64,000 nt of DNA from an uncultured Lentisphaerales bacterium (lineage in GTDB: Bacteria > Verrucomicrobiota > Lentisphaeria > JABSQK01 > JAJFLO01): positions 6,559 through 70,558 of the forward strand of contig CAZTTH010000001.1 in NCBI GenBank assembly GCA_964615975.1, given 5' to 3'. Under the pieces are notes generated by a model. That model had not been told where the DNA came from. It saw nothing but the letters and a program-made list of their open reading frames with translations, and made no database searches. Positions 30,113-41,985 of this stretch are shown piece after piece. Each line of letters starts with the position of its first letter. Positions within the stretch are counted from its first letter, which is position 1. A program made the translations under genes and the position numbers.

Positions 30113-30370
30113 AAGTCTTGAAAAGGAGTATGGTGTGTTATATGAACAGTATCTGATAATATGATTTCAGATGAAGTTCATCAACTTGCAAGGTCATGCT
30201 GACAATTGGTATTTTGCAAATACTGTATATGGTTGGAATCAGTTAATGGTGTTATAAAATTTTATTATACTATGTCGTGTGCCGATGATAAAGGCTTAAT
30301 ATTATCTGAGGCTGAGTTAATTATTCAATTCATTGTCTGGGAATGATAATAGTCCTTGAAGAGGAAGTTT

Positions 30371-31636
30371 ATGATTCGTTTAATTGAAGCCTTAAATTTT
30401 CGCAATCTAAATTATATTCGCCAACCGGTTCATAACTTTCAAGTGTTGATTGGTACTAATGGTTCTGGCAAGTCGAATTTTCTTGACATACTTTCCTTTT
30501 TAGGACGATTTATATCCAAAGGAGCGAAAGTGGCCATCACCGAACGAAGTAATAATTTTCGTGATTTGACCTGGCGTCGAAATGCCAACCGTTTTGAATT
30601 GGCAATCGAAGCTGAAATCCCCCCAGAACATCGACGTCCCTTAGACTCCCCTGAATACGATATCATTCGTTATGAGTTCGCAATTGGTATCACCCCTGAA
30701 AACCAGGATCTGATTTCATTTGATGAACAGATTACTTTGATTCAACAAAGCGAAATGACGGAGAGTGCGGTCAGCTCTTTGGAGAAAATCCCAGATACAG
30801 TATTCGTTGCTGACTACCACCAAATGTATAAGCAACTAATAGCCTATGATGAAAAGGGGAATTTATTGTTGTACCCGGAAGAGTCATTTGAAAATCAGGG
30901 GTGCCTGACATCTGACAATTACCTTTTACCCAACCGTCTCGAACCCAACCTATCGGTTTTTTGCGCCATACAAGCTTTCGAGAATGAATTTCCAGCTGCC
31001 AATTGGCTGGTACGTTTTCTCACTCAAAGTTTGTTTCAAATTCGATTGGATAGCTCCACCATGCGTCAACTCAGTCGTTATGGTCAGGAGTTTCTATTTA
31101 CCGAATATGGCGCCAAGCTGCATTGGGTAATCGAACGAATTAAAAAGGAAACACCAGATCGATTTGTTGATTGGTTGACGCAAATAAAATCACTGATGCC
31201 AGACCTCGAAGATATTGTCATCCATGAACGTCCAGATGACCGAAAAAAAATTATTGCAATCCGTTATAATGATGGGTTTGAAATCCCATCGGGTTTAATG
31301 TCAGAAGGGCTCCTGCGCTTGCTGGCGTTGACCAGTCTGCCATATTTTCCTGATAAGGGTTATCTATGTATTATTGAGGAACCTGAGAATAATCTGCATC
31401 CATTAGCTTTGGAGATTGTTATCCGGAATTTACGATCGAATTTTTCTGGTCAGATCATAATGACTACTTATTCGCCATTTGCTTTGGGATTATGCCATGC
31501 GCATGAGGTGCTGATATTTTCTGCTGATTCCCAACATGGCGCCCAAATTACCAGTGGTTCACAACACCCTGGTATCTCATATAATTTGGCTGACAGTGGA
31601 TTAAAGACTTTATTTGAAATGGGGGAATTGAATTAG
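30371..31636 (+). CDS. orphan AAA_21/ABC-type ATPase (OLD/PtuA/AriA-like P-loop protein)
   Basis: ATG at 30371 is preceded by GAAGAGGAAG. Walker A is VLIGTNGSGKSNFLD. ABC-signature-like region plus Walker B/D-loop is LLRLLALTSL…YLCIIEEPENNLHPLALE. H-loop-like region is QIIMTTYSPFAL. There is no fused nuclease domain and no partner gene. Confidence 0.7.
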   Translation: MIRLIEALNFRNLNYIRQPVHNFQVLIGTNGSGKSNFLDILSFLGRFISKGAKVAITERSNNFRDLTWRRNANRFELAIEAEIPPEHRRPLDSPEYDIIRYEFAIGITPENQDLISFDEQITLIQQSEMTESAVSSLEKIPDTVFVADYHQMYKQLIAYDEKGNLLLYPEESFENQGCLTSDNYLLPNRLEPNLSVFCAIQAFENEFPAANWLVRFLTQSLFQIRLDSSTMRQLSRYGQEFLFTEYGAKLHWVIERIKKETPDRFVDWLTQIKSLMPDLEDIVIHERPDDRKKIIAIRYNDGFEIPSGLMSEGLLRLLALTSLPYFPDKGYLCIIEEPENNLHPLALEIVIRNLRSNFSGQIIMTTYSPFALGLCHAHEVLIFSADSQHGAQITSGSQHPGISYNLADSGLKTLFEMGELN

Positions 31637-32979: not shown

Positions 32980-33031
32980 TGGTTACCCCGCCTGGACTCG
33001 AACCAGGACAAACAGGATCAAAACCTGTTGT
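32980..33031. repeat. 52-bp direct repeat (att site), partial 3' copy of tRNA-Gln
   Basis: TGGTTACCCCGCCTGGACTCGAACCAGGACAAACAGGATCAAAACCTGTTGT is identical to 41779-41830. It corresponds to the 3' 52 nt of the tRNA-Gln gene. Confidence 0.9.
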
Positions 33032-33147
33032 TATAGGTATAAAAATTAAATAGTGTGGTTGTTATGTGGTGATAATTCATGTATAATAGTGTCATATAGT
33101 TTCTATTGGTGTTAGTTAAATCATTAATCAATTAAAGGGATAATCGT

Positions 33148-34467
33148 ATGGCACGTCATAACAAGGGCACACTCTACAAACGCGGTAAAATTTACTGGCT
33201 TGAATATTACGTTAATAATGAGCGAATTCGAGAAAGTCTTAAGACCAGCAATCTCAAAGAGGCACAATCCAAGCGGGATATAATAATCAACGACCTGAAA
33301 GCCCGCAAGAATGAAGACAAACATATCGCTATCCTCCATCGAGTCAAAGATGCAGAACATGCCCGCATAGAAGCCGAACAGAAACTTCAGGATTTCCGCG
33401 AAGAAAACCGAACTAAATTGAAAATAACCGATGTTTGGGAGCATTACCTTGCCAGTAAAGAACGTCCTCAATCCGGTCAAGGAACATTAAAGGATTACGA
33501 TTATTGCTGGCGGAAATTTGTTATGTGGTGGTCGAATAATGATGGCGATCAACGCCCGTATGTAGAGGACATCAAAAAAGAAGACGCCTCGAAATTCGCC
33601 AGATTTCTTGATACAGAACAATTAAGTCCGAACCGTTACAATAAAATTATTATTTCCTGCAAGCTGGTATTAAATGTTATTGCCCCTTTATGCAATGATA
33701 TGGCCAATCCTTTTGCCGGGATTCGGAATAAACGGCTTGACCCTCAAGGTCATCGAAAATTGACCGTTGAAGAACTCCGAATAGTGTGTGGTAAAGCAAC
33801 CGGTGAAATGCGCGTTTTATTTGCGATTGGTTTGTTCACTGCTCTGAGAATGGGAGATTGCTGTACTTTGCAATGGAACGAAATCAGTTTAGAACTTGAT
33901 CGCATCGTTAGAAAACCCAATAAAGTCAAAAGTCGTAAGAAAAAGAATACCCTTATTATTCCCCTGCACCCCGATCTCCGGAAAATCCTTGTTGAGATCC
34001 CCCAGGATACGCGGCAAGATTATGTTTTACCTGAATATGCCAGTCTCTATCTTAGAGATCGTGGCGCGGTCAGCAAAAAAATACAGCAACACTTTACTGA
34101 TTGTGGAATAGATACCAAGGGGGGAAGGACTGGAAAAAATGCACCGCCCGAAGTTGGATTCCATTCGCTCAGGCATACCTTTGTCAGCATGGCTGCTCAA
34201 GCGGGTGTTCCATTACCGATCATTCAGGAATTGTGCGGCCATGAATCTTCTGCCATTCAACAGGTATATCTTCATATGGGAGAAGATGCTACCCGGCAAG
34301 CTATCCTAGCCTTGCCGAATATCGGCAATCCCGTTAACGACAACCAGCTTCTCCCGATGCCATCCAGTCAATCCCGAAATCAAGAAGCCATCGCCTTACT
34401 GAATTCCATGAATGCCAAAAACTGGGATGAAATCAAAGATAAAGTAATTAGAATACTATCTTCTTGA
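33148..34467 (+). CDS. int: tyrosine-type site-specific integrase
   Basis: 439 aa; catalytic residues in …TALRMGDCCTLQW…, HSLRHTFVSMAAQAG and …VYLHM (R…HxxR…Y). Sits adjacent to the attL repeat. Confidence 0.9.
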   Translation: MARHNKGTLYKRGKIYWLEYYVNNERIRESLKTSNLKEAQSKRDIIINDLKARKNEDKHIAILHRVKDAEHARIEAEQKLQDFREENRTKLKITDVWEHYLASKERPQSGQGTLKDYDYCWRKFVMWWSNNDGDQRPYVEDIKKEDASKFARFLDTEQLSPNRYNKIIISCKLVLNVIAPLCNDMANPFAGIRNKRLDPQGHRKLTVEELRIVCGKATGEMRVLFAIGLFTALRMGDCCTLQWNEISLELDRIVRKPNKVKSRKKKNTLIIPLHPDLRKILVEIPQDTRQDYVLPEYASLYLRDRGAVSKKIQQHFTDCGIDTKGGRTGKNAPPEVGFHSLRHTFVSMAAQAGVPLPIIQELCGHESSAIQQVYLHMGEDATRQAILALPNIGNPVNDNQLLPMPSSQSRNQEAIALLNSMNAKNWDEIKDKVIRILSS

Positions 34468-34479
34468 CTCAATTTAGAC

Positions 34480-35970
34480 TTAATCATTATTGGAGTTAAA
34501 CCATCGAATTTCTTTGTCAATAGCAGCTATAATTGAATTTGGAAATATGTAAATAAGGGGAAAATATACACCATGTGAACGGTAATGTAACGCGGTTACA
34601 ATAAAACCGATTTTACTCATAGCCATATTATCATATTTGAGCTGATTAAATATTTGGCAAACTGCTGCTTTTGAACATCCTAAAATTTTCCCTATATCAG
34701 TTAAAAAAGGCTTCAGATCAACCATTCCCTTCTTTGCATCATGTCTTTTTATTCGCCTTAGTGATTCCAATTCATTTAATGTCAAACCGATATCACTCGA
34801 AACAGTTTTTGCGATTGTGTAAGATTCTAAATCTTGGTCTATTGGGTACCAGCACATCCCACATTCCGGGCACTTAACTTCAATGTTAAAATTCGAATTA
34901 TCATCATTTGACAACTCGTCATCTTTCCATTTTTCGTCAGTATCAACTACATAAGATGTTCGATTTTTATCAATCCATTTCCCCTTTATTTGGCATGTCT
35001 GACAAACTAGTTTGCTTGGAGCTAAGATTTGATTAAGAAACCCTTTAACCAAAACATAAGTTTCATGGTTATTGAGAGTTGGATTTTTTCTCTTTTGATA
35101 TTCAAAAAGCTTTCCATAAATTAAATCAAAATAAATCTTTTCATCTTGAGGATTTCTTTTTTGACTAAAAATCGAATCTAAGTGAATCAGCAAACCTTGG
35201 ATGTATCGAATTTGCCCATTTGTGAATGAAGTCATCAAATTCATAAATTCATTACTGGGCTTTGGTAAACACGGATAAAGTTTTTTTGATAACTCACATA
35301 CCCTGGCATCCTTGAAAGTTGTTTTACAAGAATATTTAGGTAGCCTTATATTTTTTGTTAACTCCCGTGGCATAAAAAGTAATCGCCACAAGATAATTAT
35401 CTCTCGTGTTTTTGACGATTTCACAATGATATTATTTGCTTTGGGCTTCCAGTTCCATTTTATAACTGCATCTAATGAATAAAATTTTTTCTTATCTCTC
35501 CTCTCTATTGAATTCCCTAATTTCCCCTTATTAGCTGCTCTTTTAATTGTTGGAATTGATTTGCCAGTTAGTAAGTTTATATCATCATATCCCAGTCCCT
35601 TATCGTACCCCCATGAAGTTTGAACCCTCGGATTAATTAAGGTTTTTTTATATATCTCCCTCAATCGTTGTAATTCACATTCAAGAATCTTGTTTTGGTC
35701 AGTTAAAGTTAAATCAATTCCATGTAACCTGATCTTTATGTTTGCAGATGGAGGAAAAACTTCCCATTCTTTTGGAAAGTAAACTTTGAATGGAATTTTG
35801 AATTCAAATTCATAGTGGTCAATGATTGAAGCCAGAATATTTGTCAATAACTCATATATAAAGTATATAGCGTTACTTTCTTCTAATTCAGTAATTCTTC
35901 CCTTCTGCAAGTCGTTATCCAAAACGCTCGATCTTAACGGTGTGTTCATAATCTTCTTCATAGGTCGCAT
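34480..35970 (-). CDS. hypothetical 496-aa island protein (Zn-ribbon CxxC…CxxC, C-terminal HTH-like segment)
   Basis: Long AT-rich ORF convergent with int and divergent from the XRE gene. Contains CQTCQ…CPECGMC and a C-terminal DIGKILGCSKAAVCQIFNQL helix-turn-helix-like stretch. No family recognised. Confidence 0.55.
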   Translation of the reverse strand: MRPMKKIMNTPLRSSVLDNDLQKGRITELEESNAIYFIYELLTNILASIIDHYEFEFKIPFKVYFPKEWEVFPPSANIKIRLHGIDLTLTDQNKILECELQRLREIYKKTLINPRVQTSWGYDKGLGYDDINLLTGKSIPTIKRAANKGKLGNSIERRDKKKFYSLDAVIKWNWKPKANNIIVKSSKTREIIILWRLLFMPRELTKNIRLPKYSCKTTFKDARVCELSKKLYPCLPKPSNEFMNLMTSFTNGQIRYIQGLLIHLDSIFSQKRNPQDEKIYFDLIYGKLFEYQKRKNPTLNNHETYVLVKGFLNQILAPSKLVCQTCQIKGKWIDKNRTSYVVDTDEKWKDDELSNDDNSNFNIEVKCPECGMCWYPIDQDLESYTIAKTVSSDIGLTLNELESLRRIKRHDAKKGMVDLKPFLTDIGKILGCSKAAVCQIFNQLKYDNMAMSKIGFIVTALHYRSHGVYFPLIYIFPNSIIAAIDKEIRWFNSNND

Positions 35971-36055
35971 CAAAAGATCCTAATAGCTTAACCTTTGTAA
36001 GGAGTTAACGCCAACATACGTGGCAATAACAACCAAAAATATAAAGGCAAGTATT

Positions 36056-36283
36056 ATGAATGAACAAACCCCATTAAGGAAACATCGGCTATCAAAAAAA
36101 TGGACGATGTCAAAGCTGGCAAAAGAAGCCAGAGTCTCACTATCAACACTATCAAGATATGAAAACGACTGGGACACACCAACATATCAAACAGCTCAAC
36201 GCCTGGCTATCGCCTTGGAAGTGGAAGTCAGTCAAATCTATCCCAATAAGACTCTTAAAGAATCGGGGAGGGCTCTGATATGA
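36056..36283 (+). CDS. XRE-family helix-turn-helix transcriptional regulator
   Basis: MNEQTPLRKHRLSKKWTMSKLAKEARVSLSTLSRYENDWDTPTYQTAQRLAIALEV is a canonical HTH_XRE. The ATG at 36056 is preferred over the track start. Confidence 0.8.
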   Translation: MNEQTPLRKHRLSKKWTMSKLAKEARVSLSTLSRYENDWDTPTYQTAQRLAIALEVEVSQIYPNKTLKESGRALI

Positions 36284-36630
36284 AATTCAAGAACAAACCT
36301 CCTGAAAGTACACTCCTGGCAATTGTCCATCTGATTCAACCATTTGTCAGAGAAGAAATAACCCCCCAACTTCTGATCGAGACCTTGAAGCAATTCATTC
36401 CCAATCATGAAGCAAACAACCAAACTTCATCAATCCCCATTGCAAAATCGATTTCGATAATCGAAGCGGCCAACCGTCTCAATGTGAGTAAATCAACGAT
36501 CTGGAGATTGATCCGGGTGGGGATACTGAAACGATCAAAACTGGGCTCAAGAACCGCTCGCATTTCAGAACGTGATCTTGCAGCATTGATAGAGAAGGGA
36601 GGTTACGACTATGAGAAAAAACAATCGTAA
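36280..36630 (+). CDS. AlpA/excisionase-family HTH protein (HTH_17-like)
   Basis: C-terminal SIIEAANRLNVSKSTIWRLIRVGILKRSKLGSRTARISERDLAALIEKG matches MerR-type excisionase/AlpA HTH. Overlaps the XRE stop. Confidence 0.65.
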   Translation: MKFKNKPPESTLLAIVHLIQPFVREEITPQLLIETLKQFIPNHEANNQTSSIPIAKSISIIEAANRLNVSKSTIWRLIRVGILKRSKLGSRTARISERDLAALIEKGGYDYEKKQS

Positions 36631-36841
36631 TCACTCTCAACAAGCATACTTTGTCGGCCATTATACTGGAAAACAGATTCCCAAATGTACTTGTTGTGGG
36701 ATCCTCATTACGAACTGGAACCTTGGCGGGAGCAATCGAGAAAATGGAAGTACCATTACTGGTAATGTTCCTTGCAATCGTTGTGTCGATCCTGAATGCC
36801 CACCGGATTGTTTAGTTGTAAAAGAGGGAGTCAGCTTATGA
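36611..36841 (+). CDS. small Cys-rich (zinc-ribbon-like) protein
   Basis: 76 aa with CTCCG…CNRC…CPPDC. The ATG start overlaps the upstream gene, and its stop overlaps the primase ATG (ATGA), suggesting a coupled operon. A small ORF, so uncertain. Confidence 0.4.
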   Translation: MRKNNRNHSQQAYFVGHYTGKQIPKCTCCGILITNWNLGGSNRENGSTITGNVPCNRCVDPECPPDCLVVKEGVSL

Positions 36842-39390
36842 ACACCCCCCTTATCCAATTCATGATCGACGACTTGGCAAAATCCGGAATCTCATACAAA
36901 TGGGCTGTAAAACACGGATTAAGACCAGTGAATGCCAATGAATTGGCTTCCATGCTTGGATTTTCCCCCAAGAATATCAACGGTAACCAGTGTGAAGGTT
37001 ATGTAATCCCGTTCTTTGATCCCATCACGAAAAAACCCATGTTTTGCCCAGATGGTCACCGTGATTATGTTCGCGTCAAGCTCCGTGTTCCGGCCATCGA
37101 CAAAGATGGCGACCCGGCAAAATACCTTTCACCAAAAGATGCTGGCCAACATGCTTTGATTCTGCCTGAAGTCCATGCTTATTTACAAGATTCACAAAAG
37201 CCGGTAATAATAACTGAAGGTGAGAAGAAAGCCTTGGCTGCAACCCTGGCTGAATTGCCTACTATCGCATTGACCGGCAATCATGGCTGGAATATCGGCA
37301 AGACCAATGAACTATTGCCGGAATTATCCCGCTATATCGATCATAAACTGTGGATTGCCGTTTATGATTCCGATGCCAAAATCAATCCTGATTTTCACCG
37401 TTCCTTGGCACGAATGGCATTCGCGCTGTCAAAATTTGATTGCCAGCTCTATGCCGTCTATCTCCCGTCCATGGGCAACGGCAAAGTGGGGATCGATGAT
37501 TACTTGGTCGAACATGGCAAGACCATTGACGACTTAACGCGATACATAAATGAAACCAAAACCCTGGTCTCCACTGAAGATATTCCAATATCAACAAAAC
37601 CGTCGAATCACAAATCCAAGCGTTCACCCAATCAAGCGGAATTATTGGTACGTTTGACTAAAGAAATCACCTTATTTCACGGCCTTGAAGATTGCACCAA
37701 AACATATGCCAGCATTTCAATCGACAATCATTTTGAAACTTGGCCATTAAACAATCAATGTTTTTATAATTGGTTATCAAAACAGTATTATAAGACATAT
37801 AAAAAAATCCCCGGATCACAAGCAATTAACGATGCAGTAAAAACCGTTCAGGGCATTGCTCAATTCGACAAAGAAGCAATTCATGTGGGAATAAGATTCA
37901 CTTTCTATCAAGAAAGTATTTGGCTTGATCTGTGCGATCCAGAATGGCGAATCGTTAAAATTTCATCCAATGACTGGAAAATCGTTTCCGCCAAAGATGC
38001 CCCGGTAAAATTTATTCGTCGTCGTGGAATGCTACCATTGCCACAGCCTCAATCGGGGGGAAACTTCGATGATCTCAGACAACTATTGCATATCGAAGAC
38101 GATCAAAATTGGTATTTGATACTTGGTTGGCTGACCGGAGCATTACATCCCACCGGTGGATATCCCATGTTGGTAGTTAATGGCGAACAGGGGAGCGGTA
38201 AAAGCACACTGTGCAAATTTTTGCGATACTTAATTGATGCCAATACTGCCGCCCTGCGTCGCCCCCCCAAAGAACCAAAAGATTTATTCATTGCCGTTAA
38301 AAACAGCTACTTGATTGCATACGATAATCTTTCCAGTGTTCCTGATTGGTTATCGGATTCTTTGTGTACAATATCGACAGGTGGTGGATTTGCGACGCGG
38401 GAATTATATAGCGATGATGAAGAAATAATAATAAACGCTGTACGCCCGATAATCATTAATGGCATTCCCAACCTGGGGACTCGATCCGATTTGGTGGATC
38501 GTTCAGTTTGTCTACAAATGAAAGAAATTCATAACCAACAACGTAAAAGCGACCTTTACCTTGAAAATGAATTCTCTCGTTTAGCCCCATCTCTAATTGG
38601 AAAACTATGCGAAACCGCATCACATGGACTTCGTAAATATCGGCAAATTGAATTATCTGAAACGCCACGCATGGCGGATTATGCTCAATGGATTGTCGCT
38701 TGTGCCCCCGCCTTGGAATTTCATGAAAATACTTTACTGAATGCCTATCTATCTAATCGTCAGGAAATCAATCTTGATACCCTTGAACATTCGCCGCTTG
38801 CCAAAATAATTGAACGCTATTTGGAATCCGATCATCGATGGCAGGGAACATGCGGAGAACTCCTTAAGGCATTTCAGAAACTTTGTAATGATGATACTTC
38901 AGTATCTTCATCAGATTTACCCAAAACATCAAGAAAACTATCCAATGATCTAAAGCGCATTGCACCCAATTTGCGTATGAACGGGATCGAAGTTCAATTC
39001 GGTAACAAAACGAATAAGGGCAGGACAATCACTTTAGAAAAGGTTGGGAAAACACCGTCACATCCGTCACCATCGTCACAAAATAATCATAAAATATTGA
39101 ATACGAATAACATAGATTCTCATACAACCAGTGATCATTGTGTGACGTTTACCCAGAAGAGTGACGATACCGATTCATTATCAAATAACCCGGTGTCGAT
39201 TGAAGAAAGAAATATGATCATCAGTGATGGTGGAAAAGATTCGAAAGTCACCATCGCAACCAGTTGCAAACAAACTTCTTCTGAATCAACAGATCATTCA
39301 AGTGACGATAGTGACGATTGCCACCCCATATCTTCTAAATCGATATCTGAGAATGAATATGATCCCAATGTTACAACCTGGTTGTATTGA
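36838..39390 (+). CDS. replication primase-helicase (TOPRIM/DUF3854-like domain + P-loop NTPase) with Ser/Asp-rich C-terminal tail
   Basis: TOPRIM-like PVIITEGEKKALA…IAVYDSDAKIN…GIDDYL. Walker A VVNGEQGSGKST and Walker B LIAYDNL, typical of P4/D5-type primase C-terminal helicases. The last ~130 aa are low-complexity S/D/T-rich. Confidence 0.8.
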   Translation: MNTPLIQFMIDDLAKSGISYKWAVKHGLRPVNANELASMLGFSPKNINGNQCEGYVIPFFDPITKKPMFCPDGHRDYVRVKLRVPAIDKDGDPAKYLSPKDAGQHALILPEVHAYLQDSQKPVIITEGEKKALAATLAELPTIALTGNHGWNIGKTNELLPELSRYIDHKLWIAVYDSDAKINPDFHRSLARMAFALSKFDCQLYAVYLPSMGNGKVGIDDYLVEHGKTIDDLTRYINETKTLVSTEDIPISTKPSNHKSKRSPNQAELLVRLTKEITLFHGLEDCTKTYASISIDNHFETWPLNNQCFYNWLSKQYYKTYKKIPGSQAINDAVKTVQGIAQFDKEAIHVGIRFTFYQESIWLDLCDPEWRIVKISSNDWKIVSAKDAPVKFIRRRGMLPLPQPQSGGNFDDLRQLLHIEDDQNWYLILGWLTGALHPTGGYPMLVVNGEQGSGKSTLCKFLRYLIDANTAALRRPPKEPKDLFIAVKNSYLIAYDNLSSVPDWLSDSLCTISTGGGFATRELYSDDEEIIINAVRPIIINGIPNLGTRSDLVDRSVCLQMKEIHNQQRKSDLYLENEFSRLAPSLIGKLCETASHGLRKYRQIELSETPRMADYAQWIVACAPALEFHENTLLNAYLSNRQEINLDTLEHSPLAKIIERYLESDHRWQGTCGELLKAFQKLCNDDTSVSSSDLPKTSRKLSNDLKRIAPNLRMNGIEVQFGNKTNKGRTITLEKVGKTPSHPSPSSQNNHKILNTNNIDSHTTSDHCVTFTQKSDDTDSLSNNPVSIEERNMIISDGGKDSKVTIATSCKQTSSESTDHSSDDSDDCHPISSKSISENEYDPNVTTWLY

Positions 39391-39406
39391 ATGGAGTGAA
39401 CGATTG

Positions 39407-39697
39407 ATGAACCCGTCATTATCTCACCGTGCTTTAATTATTCAGAAAGCGTTGCCATTAGATAAACAACCCGAATTCAGTAAACGCTGGCAATTCTTTC
39501 ATGATGACTTACATAAAGCTGTAAATTTCCTGAATAGAATTGAACGAACCATCACACAATTAACTACTTCAACTTACGAAGCCCCATGCAACCCCGATCC
39601 TTCATGCGTACCCTTGAACCTACCCCGGAAACCCAATGAATCGAGTGTCCAATTGCTGGATCGGTGCTACAAGGCTGACGGTTATATCAAAGCCTAA
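39407..39697 (+). CDS. hypothetical small island protein
   Basis: ATG at 39407 just after the primase stop (MNPSLSHRALIIQKALPLDKQPEF…). The longer track ORF (39224..) overlaps primase in another frame and is trimmed. Confidence 0.35.
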   Translation: MNPSLSHRALIIQKALPLDKQPEFSKRWQFFHDDLHKAVNFLNRIERTITQLTTSTYEAPCNPDPSCVPLNLPRKPNESSVQLLDRCYKADGYIKA

Positions 39698-39727
39698 ACA
39701 TAATTCAAACTACAAGTGGAGAAGACC

Positions 39728-39901
39728 ATGACACGACAAGAAGTTATCACCATTTTAGAGCGGATGATTCGCGACGAAAATACCATTGATTATGATCGGA
39801 TACAGGCGATTGCGGAGTTGGCAAAAATCCAAGGCTTTTATGCCCCCAATCAATTCATAACCAAACTACAGCCATGCCTTGAATTAATGAACCTCAACTG
39901 A
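39728..39901 (+). CDS. hypothetical small protein
   Basis: 57 aa from an ATG preceded by GGAGAAG. No motif. Confidence 0.3.
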   Translation: MTRQEVITILERMIRDENTIDYDRIQAIAELAKIQGFYAPNQFITKLQPCLELMNLN

Positions 39902-40384
39902 CAACTTCATGGGTTCCTTAATGCCTTTGACCGTTGTCATGTGTTCATATACCGATATCGCCCGGGCAGCCGCAATCCTTCGAGAGACCTCCCGCGTACT
40001 GATTGTTCCGGGTGGGGTGTTCAAATTCAGGTTTGCATTGTAGTTTTCAGAACGTATGGGCGGGAACTCCCCGGCCAATTTACAATCGATTTCAATTGCC
40101 CTCAACCGATCCGCCACATTCAGGCTGTCATTAAACATCAGTTGACTTAATAATTCCCGCTTTTCCTGCAATGTCGCAACTTTGCTTTTGGCAACTTCCT
40201 TCTGTAGCTCTTTTATTCTGTCCTGAATACCAACATTTTTCAACAAAAGCCGGGAAGCTGCCGATGCCGCAATCTTGGGATTTTTCACATTCCACCCGCT
40301 TTTCCGATACGCTTCAGCCTTGGAATACCCCTCCGCGATCAATTGCGCGAACTTCTCATATCGTGGATGATTGATCACAGACAT
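39884..40384 (-). CDS. terS: phage terminase small subunit (Terminase_2/P27 family) homologue
   Basis: 166 aa; PRYEKFAQLIAEGYSKAEAYRKSGWNVKNPKIAASAASRLLLKNVGIQDRIKEL matches the Terminase_2 N-terminal HTH consensus. Confidence 0.7.
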   Translation of the reverse strand: MSVINHPRYEKFAQLIAEGYSKAEAYRKSGWNVKNPKIAASAASRLLLKNVGIQDRIKELQKEVAKSKVATLQEKRELLSQLMFNDSLNVADRLRAIEIDCKLAGEFPPIRSENYNANLNLNTPPGTISTREVSRRIAAARAISVYEHMTTVKGIKEPMKLSVEVH

Positions 40385-40457
40385 AATTCCAATTTCTTAC
40401 ATTCATAAGTTTTATACAAAGCATAAGCGACTTAATATAAACGCCACTAACTTATCT

Positions 40458-41240
40458 CTAATTTTCCTTCTTCCATTTCCATGGAGGTATCGGGCTGGTG
40501 TCTGCCCATAACCCGATCTTTTTTTCACGCGCATCTTGTTCAGTGGAATTAAAAACCCCTGAACACGGTTTATCATAATTATAACACCATGCTAACCCTT
40601 CTTTTAGCATTTGATAATTAACGGTCGTTTCTAAAAGTTTGTTTTCATCATCAATCAATTCAGTTCCATCATCAATCAATTTTTTTTTATCCAGTAATAA
40701 CACAATCCCAATATAGAAATCATGTCTTTCTTTTTTTTCACATATTACCATAAGTGGAACACTTCCTTGTGTTAGCTCGGAAGACACTAATTTAGTCAAA
40801 TAAAATTTTGCTTTATATCCATAAGGTTGATCTAATTCTGGTGCATCAATTCCCTTAAGTCTAATTACGTACAATCCATGATCGTCATCCGATCTGATTT
40901 TTAATGTATCTCCGTCAATTATGGATTCTGCCATTCCAGAAAACGACATTGTTTCCAATTCGTTTGATTTCACAATCGTTTCTTGTCCAGGAAGTTCTGG
41001 TTTTGCTTTTTTATCATCCATCAAACCATCAACCTGTTTAAATTTATTATCAGACCAAGACCACTCATAGGTTTTGAATGCACCAAATTTTGTGTCAAGG
41101 ATTACTATTACCGATTGATTTGCTCTTGCTGTGTGTACTTGATACCGTCCAATGTCCACATTTTGTTTATGACAATACCAGTATAGCCACATCGAAAAAG
41201 CAAAGAAGAGATAAAGTATAGCTATTTTTATATTGCTCAC
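40458..41240 (-). CDS. membrane-anchored thermonuclease (SNase-like) domain protein
   Basis: 260 aa with an N-terminal TM segment and a C-terminal SNase core (DGDTLKI…IRLKGIDAPELDQPYGYKAKFYL…LKEGLAW…AREKKIGLW). GTG start. AT-rich gene. Confidence 0.8.
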   Translation of the reverse strand: MSNIKIAILYLFFAFSMWLYWYCHKQNVDIGRYQVHTARANQSVIVILDTKFGAFKTYEWSWSDNKFKQVDGLMDDKKAKPELPGQETIVKSNELETMSFSGMAESIIDGDTLKIRSDDDHGLYVIRLKGIDAPELDQPYGYKAKFYLTKLVSSELTQGSVPLMVICEKKERHDFYIGIVLLLDKKKLIDDGTELIDDENKLLETTVNYQMLKEGLAWCYNYDKPCSGVFNSTEQDAREKKIGLWADTSPIPPWKWKKEN

Positions 41241-41778
41241 TTTATCGATATATAATTGTGTTTATGAGTCATTGGGTTGGTTATATCATTAAACAATAAG
41301 TGCGATAGCAATGAATTGTTTGAGGGATACTCATCAATTCTTTATGATTTTTCCTGTGACGATTATAAATTAAATTCGTTATATTCTATGTTCCTTACCA
41401 TTTAATGGTTGTGAATTTCTCATTATCGTTTGTAGTGATAACAAATCACAGACGGTCATTCATCAAGATTTTGATTAAAAATAATCAGAAATTGCCAATC
41501 TGGCAACTCATGATAAAATTTCTAAACAACCACTGTACCACCAAAATAATTGTTATGGATGAGTGGCATATTTTTGTCAGACTCTTTAACACCTTCCGGA
41601 AACATCCCCAAAAATATTTTGAACCTACCCCCACAGGTCGTGATCGATAATGCCCCCGCCCCCCCTCCATATTAAAACGACCAGCCTAAAGCAGACTGTG
41701 GTTGTTATGTGGTTGTTATTCGGGGGCAATGTGGTGGTTTCATAAAGTGTCAGATAGGCTTTATTAGCCTCAAATGAA

Positions 41779-41853
41779 TGGTTACCCCGCCTGGACTCGA
41801 ACCAGGACAAACAGGATCAAAACCTGTTGTGCTACCGATTACACCACGGGGTA
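41779..41853 (-). tRNA. tRNA-Gln (anticodon TTG), intact; 3' 52 nt form the right att repeat
   Basis: Minus-strand sequence TACCCCGTGGTGTAATCGGTAGCACAACAGGTTTTGATCCTGTTTGTCCTGGTTCGAGTCCAGGCGGGGTAACCA. Acceptor TACCCCG/CGGGGTA. Anticodon stem ACAGG/CCTGT with loop TTTTGAT. Confidence 0.85.
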
Positions 41854-41985
41854 GGAAAAGGAGGGCGGAAAAAGAAACTCATCACAAACTTAATAATTTT
41901 TCTTTCTTTTACAGAACAACCCATATAATGAAAAACGTAAGTAGAATGTAGAAGTTTCGTTAATCTGCAATCTGAAAAGTGAAAA

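Follow-up and report, generated by a model that had tools for sequence, protein, structure and literature searches.

The 64-kb window analysed here, meaning the whole stretch of DNA under study, raises the question of what kind of element has placed a gene for a small terminase subunit and a gene for a nuclease-like protein side by side next to a tRNA gene, and what role the nuclease-like protein might have there. The first-pass annotation had named these two genes as the last of an island before tRNA-Gln, and we confirmed both: the ORF at 39884–40384 (minus strand, 166 aa) encodes a small terminase subunit (TerS) by Pfam and PHROG, and the ORF at 40458–41240 (minus strand, 260 aa from a GTG start) encodes a protein of the SNase/thermonuclease family by Pfam, AF2 and Foldseek. 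The island comprises 8,851 bp (32980–41830) and has at its ends the two copies of a perfect direct repeat of 52 nt that corresponds to the 3’ part of tRNA-Gln. The intact tRNA-Gln(ttg), located by tRNA and repeat detection, lies at 41779–41853 on the minus strand, and its 3’ 52 nt (41779–41830) constitute attR; the displaced copy at 32980–33031, to which no strand is assigned, constitutes attL. Repeat analysis also found two TGTGGTTGTTA-type 11-mers just inside attL (33054–33078, plus strand), which are candidate arm-type recombinase sites, and three direct (A/C)TGTGGTTGTT 11-mers just inside attR (41696–41739, plus strand) with an inverted copy at 41525–41536, the function of both sets being putative.

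Reading inward from attL, the island encodes a 439-aa tyrosine integrase (33148–34467, plus strand; PHROG_1 integrase at 4.2e-48, with XerA/XerC-type matches in NCBIfam). The accessory slot beside it is occupied by a 497-aa orphan protein (34480–35973, minus strand), which has no match in Pfam, PHROGs or NCBIfam and whose gene is low in GC (32.6%, with GC3 of 29.5%, against 41–47% in the core genes). Two regulators follow on the plus strand, an 87-aa Cro/CI-type HTH_3 protein at 36020–36283 (PF01381 at 8e-12; PHROG_3 repressor at 7e-12) and a 116-aa AlpA/excisionase-type HTH_17 protein at 36280–36630 (PF12728 at 8.6e-10; TIGR01764 excisionase domain at 36.1 bits, cutoff 28.8; PHROG_66). The 864-aa replication protein at 36796–39390 (plus strand) is of the primase-helicase type, with an N-terminal DUF3854 (Toprim-like) domain (PF12965 at 1.1e-13) and a P-loop domain; Pfam gave weak AAA matches at residues 438–503, and the central and C-terminal part has 35–38% identity to mobile-element Prim-Pol/PriCT_2 proteins of 1000–1300 aa. 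A 61-aa ORF at 39716–39901 (plus strand) is convergent with terS and overlaps it by 18 nt. The terS and nuclease genes run opposite to the replication module, which is not the arrangement of textbook PICIs.

The whole 64-kb window yielded no homologue of the large terminase subunit (TerL), and neither capsid, tail, lysis or other structural genes (PHROG, Pfam; island proteins scanned) nor conjugation or mobilisation genes (Pfam, PHROG, NCBIfam) were detected on the island. Within 39300–41900, an Rfam search recovered the tRNA alone, and a promoter and terminator scan that included the region upstream of the nuclease gene gave nothing better than shuffled sequence. The candidate identity ‘EcnA’ was rejected, its NCBIfam score being far below the cutoff and the name not being traced in the literature.

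A Terminase_2-family small subunit had been proposed for the 39884–40384 ORF, and the proposal stood. The Pfam match is marginal, PF03592 exceeding its cutoff of 26.1 bits by just 1.4 (27.5 bits) and covering mostly the N-terminal HTH. PHROG_51 ‘terminase small subunit’ matched at 8e-15, and a family HMM from which the query had been left out matched at E 1e-45 over positions 8–153 of 169, spanning the HTH and the core. The AF2 model is all-helical (pLDDT 86.9), and its top six PDB matches are small terminases (PaP3, NV1, E217 and Sf6), but the matches are weak (E 0.02–0.8, TM 0.3–0.5). A word-indexed homologue search with TerS found the protein itself alone, and an exhaustive phmmer search was needed to recover its 830 relatives. 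TerS also matches annotated TerS proteins of isolated phages. The relatives in viral contigs are directly followed by an ORF of 430–730 aa; of 34 ORFs in this position, at least 23 match PHROG_2 TerL, and Pfam Terminase_6N or Terminase_3 matches occur in 15. The genomic relatives are all from Verrucomicrobiota, and six of the eight have no TerL within their flanks. In these TerL-less integrase-primase islands TerS is followed by variable cargo, for example a restriction-modification (R-M) system; one locus (L005) has the order integrase, AlpA-like protein, D5_N primase-helicase and TerS, then type I/IIG R-M cargo. Because its relatives precede TerL in phages, yet sit without TerL in Verrucomicrobiota islands, we read terS as a hijacking gene, so that the protein is best assigned as the packaging-hijack core gene of the island. 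The earlier description of both genes as terminal cargo thus applies to the nuclease but not to terS, a core satellite gene, and the suggestion that a terS lacking its large subunit is of the satellite type was borne out by the TerL-free window and by the TerL-less islands that hold most of the genomic relatives.

An orphan terS inside an integrase/primase island is a satellite signature, and the gene content was compared with the core set of the phage-inducible chromosomal island (PICI) class (de Sousa et al. 2023). Four of the five modules are present, namely integrase, regulation, primase-replicase and the island’s own TerS, the regulation module (alpA, merR or stl type) being represented by the HTH_17/excisionase-type and HTH_3 proteins. 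The PICI definition also calls for an own terS without TerL, tail, lysis or other structural genes, and the island has this arrangement. For the fifth module, a capsid-morphogenesis gene, there was no PHROG or Pfam match among the island proteins scanned; this component is also missing in SaPI-type PICIs (PMC10085698). We considered the alternative that the island is an integrative element other than a phage satellite, either integrative and mobilisable or a defective remnant, and that its Terminase_2-like protein is an HTH DNA-binding protein that has been domesticated and has no part in packaging. The thin Pfam margin, the weak Foldseek E-values, the lack of a capsid-morphogenesis gene, the opposite orientation of the terS module and the small size of 8.85 kb are compatible with this alternative, and a PICI-like set with few core genes can represent another kind of element (PMC10085698). 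It is nevertheless unlikely in our judgement: the PHROG_51 match and a family profile that runs past the HTH into the core argue against a mere DNA-binding protein, the relatives are genuine phage TerS genes with TerL next to them, the integrase-primase-TerS-cargo layout recurs independently in Verrucomicrobiota, and the four core modules are present with no conjugation or mobilisation genes detected. We therefore favour, with moderate confidence, the explanation that the island as a whole is a PICI-like phage satellite in tRNA-Gln with a TerS hijack gene and a tethered SNase-like cargo protein. As such it adds one more, rather ordinary, case to a known element type.

The island shares with SaPI-type PICIs its tRNA- or att-flanked position, the integrase, the AlpA/Xis-type and HTH regulators, the primase-replicase and its own TerS, the lack of TerL, structural and lysis genes, and the placement of accessory genes by the integrase and after terS (PMC10085698). 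It differs in being below the typical PICI size, in the inversion of terS and cargo, in the DUF3854/Toprim-like N-terminus of its primase and in its host, a Shine-Dalgarno-poor diderm with many hybrid histidine kinases that also encodes TolB; the relatives of its genes are in Verrucomicrobiota and Planctomycetota and not in Firmicutes or Proteobacteria. Its induction and packaging are predicted from gene content. Small integrative elements with an integrase, AlpA, a primase/helicase and sometimes TerS are also known as marine VEIMEs (Eppley et al. 2022, PMC9618062), some of which are integrated in Verrucomicrobia and some of which carry R-M or Abi cargo, and the VEIME TerS is closest to the TerS of co-occurring phages (PMC9618062). 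VEIMEs are defined by their presence inside virions (PMC9618062), whereas the island in the window is known from its genes. We found no sequence relatives in IMG/VR with the primase or by a single-protein terS scan. Sister islands were also not found: the primase had no match among viral contigs and recovered a single weak fragment from metagenome contigs, and the 8.85-kb island has no close relatives with which to compare its layout. A composite homologue query made of the primase, two host proteins, the 497-aa orphan and the N-terminus of the nuclease yielded five primase relatives among the matches listed, and it is a weak test of whether the 497-aa protein and the nuclease linker have relatives.

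The gene content suggests how such a satellite would behave. A helper tailed phage would induce the island, leading to its excision by the integrase and the AlpA/Xis-like protein, and the excised island would replicate via the 864-aa primase-helicase. The island TerS would then draw the helper’s large terminase onto island DNA, resulting in packaging in helper capsids.

The second gene of the pair was analysed for its fold and its active site. Pfam SNase (PF00565) matched residues 126–247 with 46.8 bits (cutoff 21; E 4.4e-12), a family HMM from 75 homologues gave 129.6 bits, and a profile alignment gave 9.3e-42. AF2, Foldseek and the profile alignment delimit an SNase OB-fold domain at residues 98–259 (40464–40949, minus strand), with pLDDT above 90 across the nuclease domain, and the best PDB matches of the model are S. 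aureus nuclease (Foldseek E 1e-9, TM on target 0.75–0.82). The protein ends one or two residues past this domain and has no C-terminal domain. Upstream of it, residues ~26–100 have no detectable homologue, in agreement with the unknown ~100-aa linker that had been described, and homologue matches are confined to the nuclease domain, ~60% of the query.

In S. aureus nuclease, Asp21 and Asp40 are Ca2+ ligands and Glu43 is the general base. D111, R127, D132 and E135 of the window protein are the equivalents of D21, R35, D40 and E43, in columns that are invariant or near-invariant, and the conserved C-terminal GLW...PPW motif is kept. At the position of Arg87, the codon TTC (40716–40718, minus strand) encodes Phe175; this column holds Arg in 71 of 76 sequences in a MAFFT alignment, with which an independent profile-HMM alignment agrees. 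The five of 76 without Arg87 are four homologues and the window protein itself. Two neighbouring positions also deviate, Asp83 (Asp in 73 of 76) being replaced by Glu171 and the near-invariant Tyr85 by His173. The catalytic role of Arg87 has been described (PMC8436206), and a rate effect of ~35,000-fold is attributed to the two guanidinium residues in combination with Ca2+ (PMC8436206). The first-pass annotation had called the nuclease fold complete and had itself named absence of the catalytic Arg/Glu/Asp constellation as evidence against its reading. The fold, the PF00565 match and the four equivalent residues held, but the constellation fails in part, and the active site is not complete because the catalytic Arg87 is Phe175.

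The substitutions at Arg87, Asp83 and Tyr85 argue against an efficient nuclease. Turnover would be expected to lie much below that of canonical enzymes, or the chemistry to be altered, unless another basic residue substitutes; Arg172, Lys169 and Lys170 are possible stand-ins. Compared with S. aureus nuclease (Nuc or micrococcal nuclease), with which it shares the OB-fold and the D21, R35, D40 and E43 equivalents at ~20% identity, the window protein differs at the positions of Arg87, Asp83 and Tyr85, and it adds a predicted N-terminal TM anchor, a ~75-aa linker and, within the nuclease domain, a hairpin insertion of ~20 aa. Repeat analysis and the alignments place this insertion at 40632–40694 (minus strand), and it contains an imperfect 21-bp tandem duplication (LIDDGTE / LIDDENK). 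These features raise the possibility of a pseudo-enzyme or a decaying gene, in which the fold is kept and catalysis lost, so that the product would bind nucleic acid only or be a functionless hitch-hiker. Phe175 and the two further deviations fit such a loss, the duplication within the loop suggests relaxed constraint, and there are no close relatives to demonstrate purifying selection. We nonetheless find this doubtful, since a 260-codon frame is intact in 35%-GC DNA, the remaining four residues with a role in catalysis or Ca2+ binding are retained along with the GLW...PPW motif, AF2 confidence is high over the domain, and the loss of Arg87 in other family members means that it is not strictly indispensable there.

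The location of the protein depends on its start codon. With the GTG start, residues 4–23, IKIAILYLFFAFSMWLYWYC (41172–41231, minus strand), form a predicted signal-anchor/TM helix (Kyte-Doolittle 15-residue maximum of 2.0; AF2 helix at residues 2–25), but the NCBI gene call (P0001, 244 aa) starts at Met17 (41190–41192) and loses most of the hydrophobic segment, so that the N-terminal TM helix annotated at first pass stands only with the GTG start. Ribosome-binding sites are no guide to the choice between GTG and Met17, as the host hardly uses Shine-Dalgarno sequences. An N-terminal hydrophobic segment is present in 68 of 76 SNase homologues (18 have a lipobox), and this family comparison favours the GTG start over Met17. 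Export is favoured because so many homologues carry such a segment, and the protein is likely exported or membrane-located. It would be a type-II membrane protein made of an N-terminal signal anchor, a ~75-aa poorly ordered juxtamembrane linker and a C-terminal domain, and the SNase domain with its predicted Ca2+ site would face the periplasm of the diderm host.

If Met17 were the start, the protein could be cytoplasmic and a partner of TerS, either cutting helper-phage DNA as an interference function, like NixI of PLE, or acting as the cutting partner in packaging. In keeping with this are the public gene call, the short distance of 73 nt from the nuclease gene to terS, which follows it on the same strand, and the known deployment of nucleases against helpers by satellites. 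We regard it as highly improbable: an SNase gene occurred in none of 56 terS loci, the export signals prevail in the family, the 16 codons before Met17 encode a coherent hydrophobic helix, and the GC content of the nuclease gene is 12 points off that of terS. SNase enzymes need high Ca2+, typical outside the cytoplasm, and this need also fits an extracytoplasmic site.

The nuclease-like gene has a GC content of 34.6% and GC3 of 28%, compared to 41–47% for core genes and 43–46% for host genes, and apart from itself the protein had no match above 40% identity among 5.8 billion clusters. Its homologues have heterogeneous contexts, one being beside an AbiEii gene, one beside chromosomal-type genes and one among genes without Pfam matches. 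Because it sits in the slot after terS, is low in GC, has no close relative and is missing from the 56 terS loci, we classify the gene as horizontally acquired cargo, on composition and distribution. From the attR side, the gene and terS are probably transcribed together. The view of a secreted or membrane nuclease as an accessory gene was therefore upheld as to the accessory status, with an exported or membrane location likely. A toxin-like role, which had also been offered, found no support, since the family consists of exported enzymes with signal peptides and no immunity partner was evident. The cognate inhibitor sought among the small ORFs at 39407–39901 was likewise not found: one of these is the 61-aa TerS-core-like ORF, and the other has no matches.

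In place of these roles, the SNase-like protein most likely resembles YokF, by analogy, as an accessory protein that is tethered outside the cytoplasm and binds or degrades DNA. YokF, from the B. subtilis prophage SPbeta, is described as a thermonuclease that is located at the membrane and prevents the transfer of plasmids (bioRxiv 10.1101/2025.10.26.684598). The two proteins are alike in being encoded by mobile elements, in their location at the membrane after export (predicted for the window protein) and in having a thermonuclease domain, with a proposed action against competing DNA (bioRxiv 10.1101/2025.10.26.684598). They differ in that YokF consists of a cleavable signal peptide, a TNase domain and a C-terminal TNM domain (residues 256–296), a three-part architecture not found in the window protein, which has an N-terminal anchor and linker and no C-terminal domain. 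YokF is also Gram-positive and the host of the window protein diderm, and the Arg87-to-Phe change is a feature of the window protein that the available text does not report for YokF (bioRxiv 10.1101/2025.10.26.684598). In a YokF-like manner, the tethered nuclease could keep out competing DNA that arrives from phages, from plasmids or by transformation, or it could process extracellular DNA.

The 61-aa ORF was found by the TerS HMM on a six-frame translation of the island (E 1e-7), and hhalign aligned it to TerS residues 67–114 with a probability of 94% (E 1.3e-7). It lacks the HTH and can be classed, from these alignments, as a fragment-like homologue of the TerS core. A bolder proposal, which we hold improbable, joins the two small products in a satellite kit against competitors, in which a periplasmic SNase gate would capture or slowly nick DNA and so exclude phage and plasmid DNA, while the 61-aa mini-protein poisons the TerS ring of the helper and full-length TerS packages the island. 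Under this proposal the Arg87-to-Phe change would have turned a bulk nuclease into the DNA-capturing or slow-nicking gate, and the TerS-core-only protein would co-assemble with the helper TerS, its function resembling that of SaPI Ppi. A two-part kit of this kind is not known to have been described for satellites.

Neither the island nor its SNase-like protein overturns current understanding. The island would add a PICI-like satellite to lineages in which satellites are barely catalogued, and the Verrucomicrobiota loci form a small set of similar islands. Its slot after terS appears to hold an exported nuclease-fold protein instead of the usual toxin or cytoplasmic defence system. The Arg87-to-Phe variant is a natural experiment on the tolerance of the SNase active site to the loss of a catalytic arginine. 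If it is true that the tethered nuclease excludes foreign DNA, the idea of a YokF-type gatekeeper at the cell envelope would extend to diderms and to satellites.

The island occupies 8,851 bp between two copies of a perfect 52-nt direct repeat (32980-33031 and 41779-41830), identical to the 3' part of the tRNA-Gln(ttg) gene that ARAGORN and Rfam placed at 41779-41853 (-). A tyrosine integrase (33148-34467, +; PHROG and NCBIfam profile matches) is followed by orf497 (34480-35973, -), a 497-aa orphan without a match in Pfam, PHROGs or NCBIfam. It lies between the integrase and the regulators, a Cro/CI-type HTH_3 protein (36020-36283, +; Pfam and PHROG matches) and an HTH_17/excisionase-type protein (36280-36630, +; Pfam, PHROG and NCBIfam matches), and it carries Cys-rich zinc-ribbon-like motifs. 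Next comes an 864-aa protein (36796-39390, +) with an N-terminal DUF3854 (Toprim-like) domain and a P-loop by Pfam; its central and C-terminal part shares 35-38% identity with Prim-Pol/PriCT_2 proteins (1000-1300 aa) encoded by other mobile elements, including one from a Planctomycetota MAG. ORF calling placed small ORFs at 39407-39901 (+), and the two remaining genes lie where the first-pass annotation had put them: the 166-aa small terminase, TerS (39884-40384, -; Pfam and PHROG), and the 260-aa SNase-like protein with a GTG start (40458-41240, -; Pfam). An 11-mer, (A/C)TGTGGTTGTT, is repeated just inside both att sites, with two copies at attL (33054-33078) and three direct copies and one inverted near attR (41696-41739 and 41525-41536); these look like candidate arm-type binding sites for the integrase or Xis. 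Just outside attL, a 426-aa AAA ATPase (30356-31636, +) matches PADLOC defence-system profiles (HEC-01A at 2.8e-37; also AriA, mad3 and OLD-like) and may represent a defence gene adjoining an integration hotspot.

TerS scored barely above the threshold of Pfam Terminase_2 (27.5 bits against 26.1) and matched PHROG_51, 'terminase small subunit', at 8e-15. A word-indexed homologue search yielded no match beyond TerS itself; exhaustive phmmer recovered 830 relatives with 38-47% identity across residues 1-110. A family HMM built with the window sequence left out matched TerS at E 1e-45, and the match covered the HTH as well as the helical core. The AF2 model was all-helical (pLDDT 86.9), and its best six matches in the PDB fold search were all small terminases (PaP3, NV1, E217, Sf6), albeit with weak E-values. 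Isolated phages, Pseudanabaena phage Pam5 and Bacillus phage TP21-L among them, gave tblastn matches to genes annotated as small terminase subunits. The convergent 61-aa ORF at 39716-39901 (+), which overlaps terS by 18 nt, aligned with the TerS family over its helical core alone (hhalign probability 94%, E 1.3e-7; hmmsearch E 1e-7), and no HTH part was found upstream of it in any frame. It may be what is left of a second terS (two copies occur at L004) or a mini-protein consisting of the TerS core; a role as a decoy against a helper TerS is speculative. No cognate nuclease inhibitor, as had been envisaged among these small ORFs, was evident.

In 48 IMG/VR contigs with TerS relatives, an ORF of 430-730 aa almost always directly followed terS. 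At least 23 of the 34 such ORFs scanned match PHROG_2 (large terminase, TerL), and further matches were to other TerL PHROGs and Pfam Terminase_6N/6C/3. The eight genomic relatives, all from Verrucomicrobiota, had TerL within the flanks at two loci only (L003 and L006); at L006 (7943-10501) the order is unusual, with a TerL-like 671-aa gene directly preceding terS instead of following it. None of 35 TerL-like queries matched the 64-kb window, even at E <=1. TerL thus accompanies the relatives in viral contigs but is missing beside the window terS and most of the genomic relatives, as would be expected if a satellite contributed TerS and took the rest from a helper, in agreement with the earlier satellite reading.

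The core of a phage-inducible chromosomal island (PICI) comprises an integrase, alpA/merR/stl-type regulation, a primase-replicase, capsid morphogenesis and terS, with capsid morphogenesis often absent, for instance from SaPIs (De Sousa et al., PMC10085698). The window island has four of these five items and fits both accessory-slot rules; terS is thus a core item, and its earlier description as cargo was wrong. At L001 and L007, terS is followed by miscellaneous genes (ion-channel protein, LRR protein, GNAT acetyltransferase, helicase). That the island is a non-satellite integrative element, its TerS-like protein being a domesticated HTH protein, is in our judgment unlikely. As a satellite, it would be excised and replicated upon induction by a helper and packaged under the direction of TerS.

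Assignment of the 40458-41240 product to the SNase family is solid: Pfam SNase matched residues 126-247 (E 4.4e-12), a profile from 75 homologues scored it at 129.6 bits, the AF2 model exceeded pLDDT 90 at residues about 98-259, and the top PDB matches by Foldseek were S. aureus nuclease (E 1e-9). We mapped the active site twice, by MAFFT alignment of 76 sequences and, independently, by a profile-HMM alignment including the S. aureus enzyme, and the two agreed. The first-pass annotation had described a complete fold, but the active site is incomplete: the equivalents of D21, R35, D40 and E43 are retained (D111, R127, D132 and E135), whereas R87, an Arg in 71/76 sequences, is replaced by F175. 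D83, an Asp in 73/76, corresponds to E171, and Y85 is substituted by H173. The Phe175 codon, TTC (40716-40718), is at least two substitutions from any Arg codon and therefore not a single base error. In the S. aureus enzyme, Arg35 and Arg87 polarize the scissile phosphate, Arg87 is the proposed proton donor, and the guanidinium groups and Ca2+ are jointly credited with a ~35,000-fold rate effect (PMC8436206). Because the role of Arg87 is lost, the protein should have much lower nuclease activity or act chiefly by binding DNA, barring compensation by another basic residue. A hairpin of the domain also carries a loop insertion of ~20 aa (residues 183-203) with an imperfect 21-bp tandem duplication, LIDDGTE/LIDDENK (40632-40694, -). 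A dead or decaying gene is a somewhat unlikely account of these features.

The other correction to a largely right first-pass observation concerns the N-terminal TM helix, which depends on the start codon. From the GTG, a hydrophobic stretch of 20 residues spans positions 4-23 (IKIAILYLFFAFSMWLYWYC; 15-residue Kyte-Doolittle maximum 2.0), and AF2 modelled residues 2-25 as a helix; the public NCBI call (P0001, 244 aa) begins at Met17 and loses most of it (start region 41190-41240). An N-terminal hydrophobic segment is present in 68/76 SNase homologues and a lipobox in 18, so that the family is predicted to be exported and the GTG start would give back its typical N-terminus. This suggests that the true start is the GTG 16 codons upstream of Met17, and that the public annotation probably truncates a signal anchor. 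Shine-Dalgarno motifs were almost absent upstream of the starts of 24 host and island genes; since the host rarely uses them, ribosome-binding sites cannot decide between the two starts. Residues about 26-100 had low AF2 confidence, and the homologue search detected nothing for them. The host encodes TolB and is therefore a diderm, in which GTG initiation would yield an inner-membrane anchor with the nuclease domain in the periplasm.

The nuclease-like gene occupies the canonical slot after terS and has a GC content of 34.6% (GC3 28%), compared with 46.7% for terS, 41-43% for other core genes and 43-46% for host genes. No relative above 40% identity, other than itself, was found among 5.8 billion protein clusters, and none of 56 terS loci carried an SNase gene, which argues against a conserved TerS-SNase partnership. 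For these reasons we call the gene cargo, as its earlier accessory designation implied. A cytoplasmic nuclease cooperating with TerS is the least likely alternative, and a very improbable one. Elsewhere, the surroundings of SNase homologues vary, and a few phages also carry one. The other accessory-slot gene, orf497, is as deviant (GC 32.6%) and is either further cargo of foreign composition or, possibly, a regulator of the Stl type. The closest functional precedent is YokF of the B. subtilis prophage SPbeta, a thermonuclease at the membrane that through its activity prevents plasmid transfer (bioRxiv 10.1101/2025.10.26.684598). The C-terminal TNM domain described there for YokF is missing from the nuclease-like protein, making the latter an analogue rather than a YokF-family member. 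The nuclease-like protein would act on extracytoplasmic DNA, either keeping incoming DNA out or processing DNA outside the cell.

The host belongs to a poorly sampled diderm lineage: none of the host proteins tested clustered with another protein at 90% identity in a collection of 15 billion, and the host genome was absent from the GTDB representatives scanned. Elsewhere in Verrucomicrobiota, L005 (1-9900; MAG contig JBAXOP010000203.1) is an independent island laid out like the window island, with an integrase, a 77-aa AlpA-like protein, a D5_N/DUF5906 primase-helicase, a small ORF, TerS and then R-M cargo (type I/IIG methylase and specificity subunit). At L004, two tandem terS genes accompany a DUF5906 protein and an integrase-like protein that has just the N-terminal SAM-like domains, and together these islands look like an uncatalogued PICI-like group. 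Small TerS-bearing satellites integrated in Verrucomicrobia are already known (Eppley et al., PMC9618062), and the window island is an isolated example of a satellite resembling PICIs or virion-encapsidated integrative mobile elements (VEIMEs), with a somewhat unusual cargo gene.
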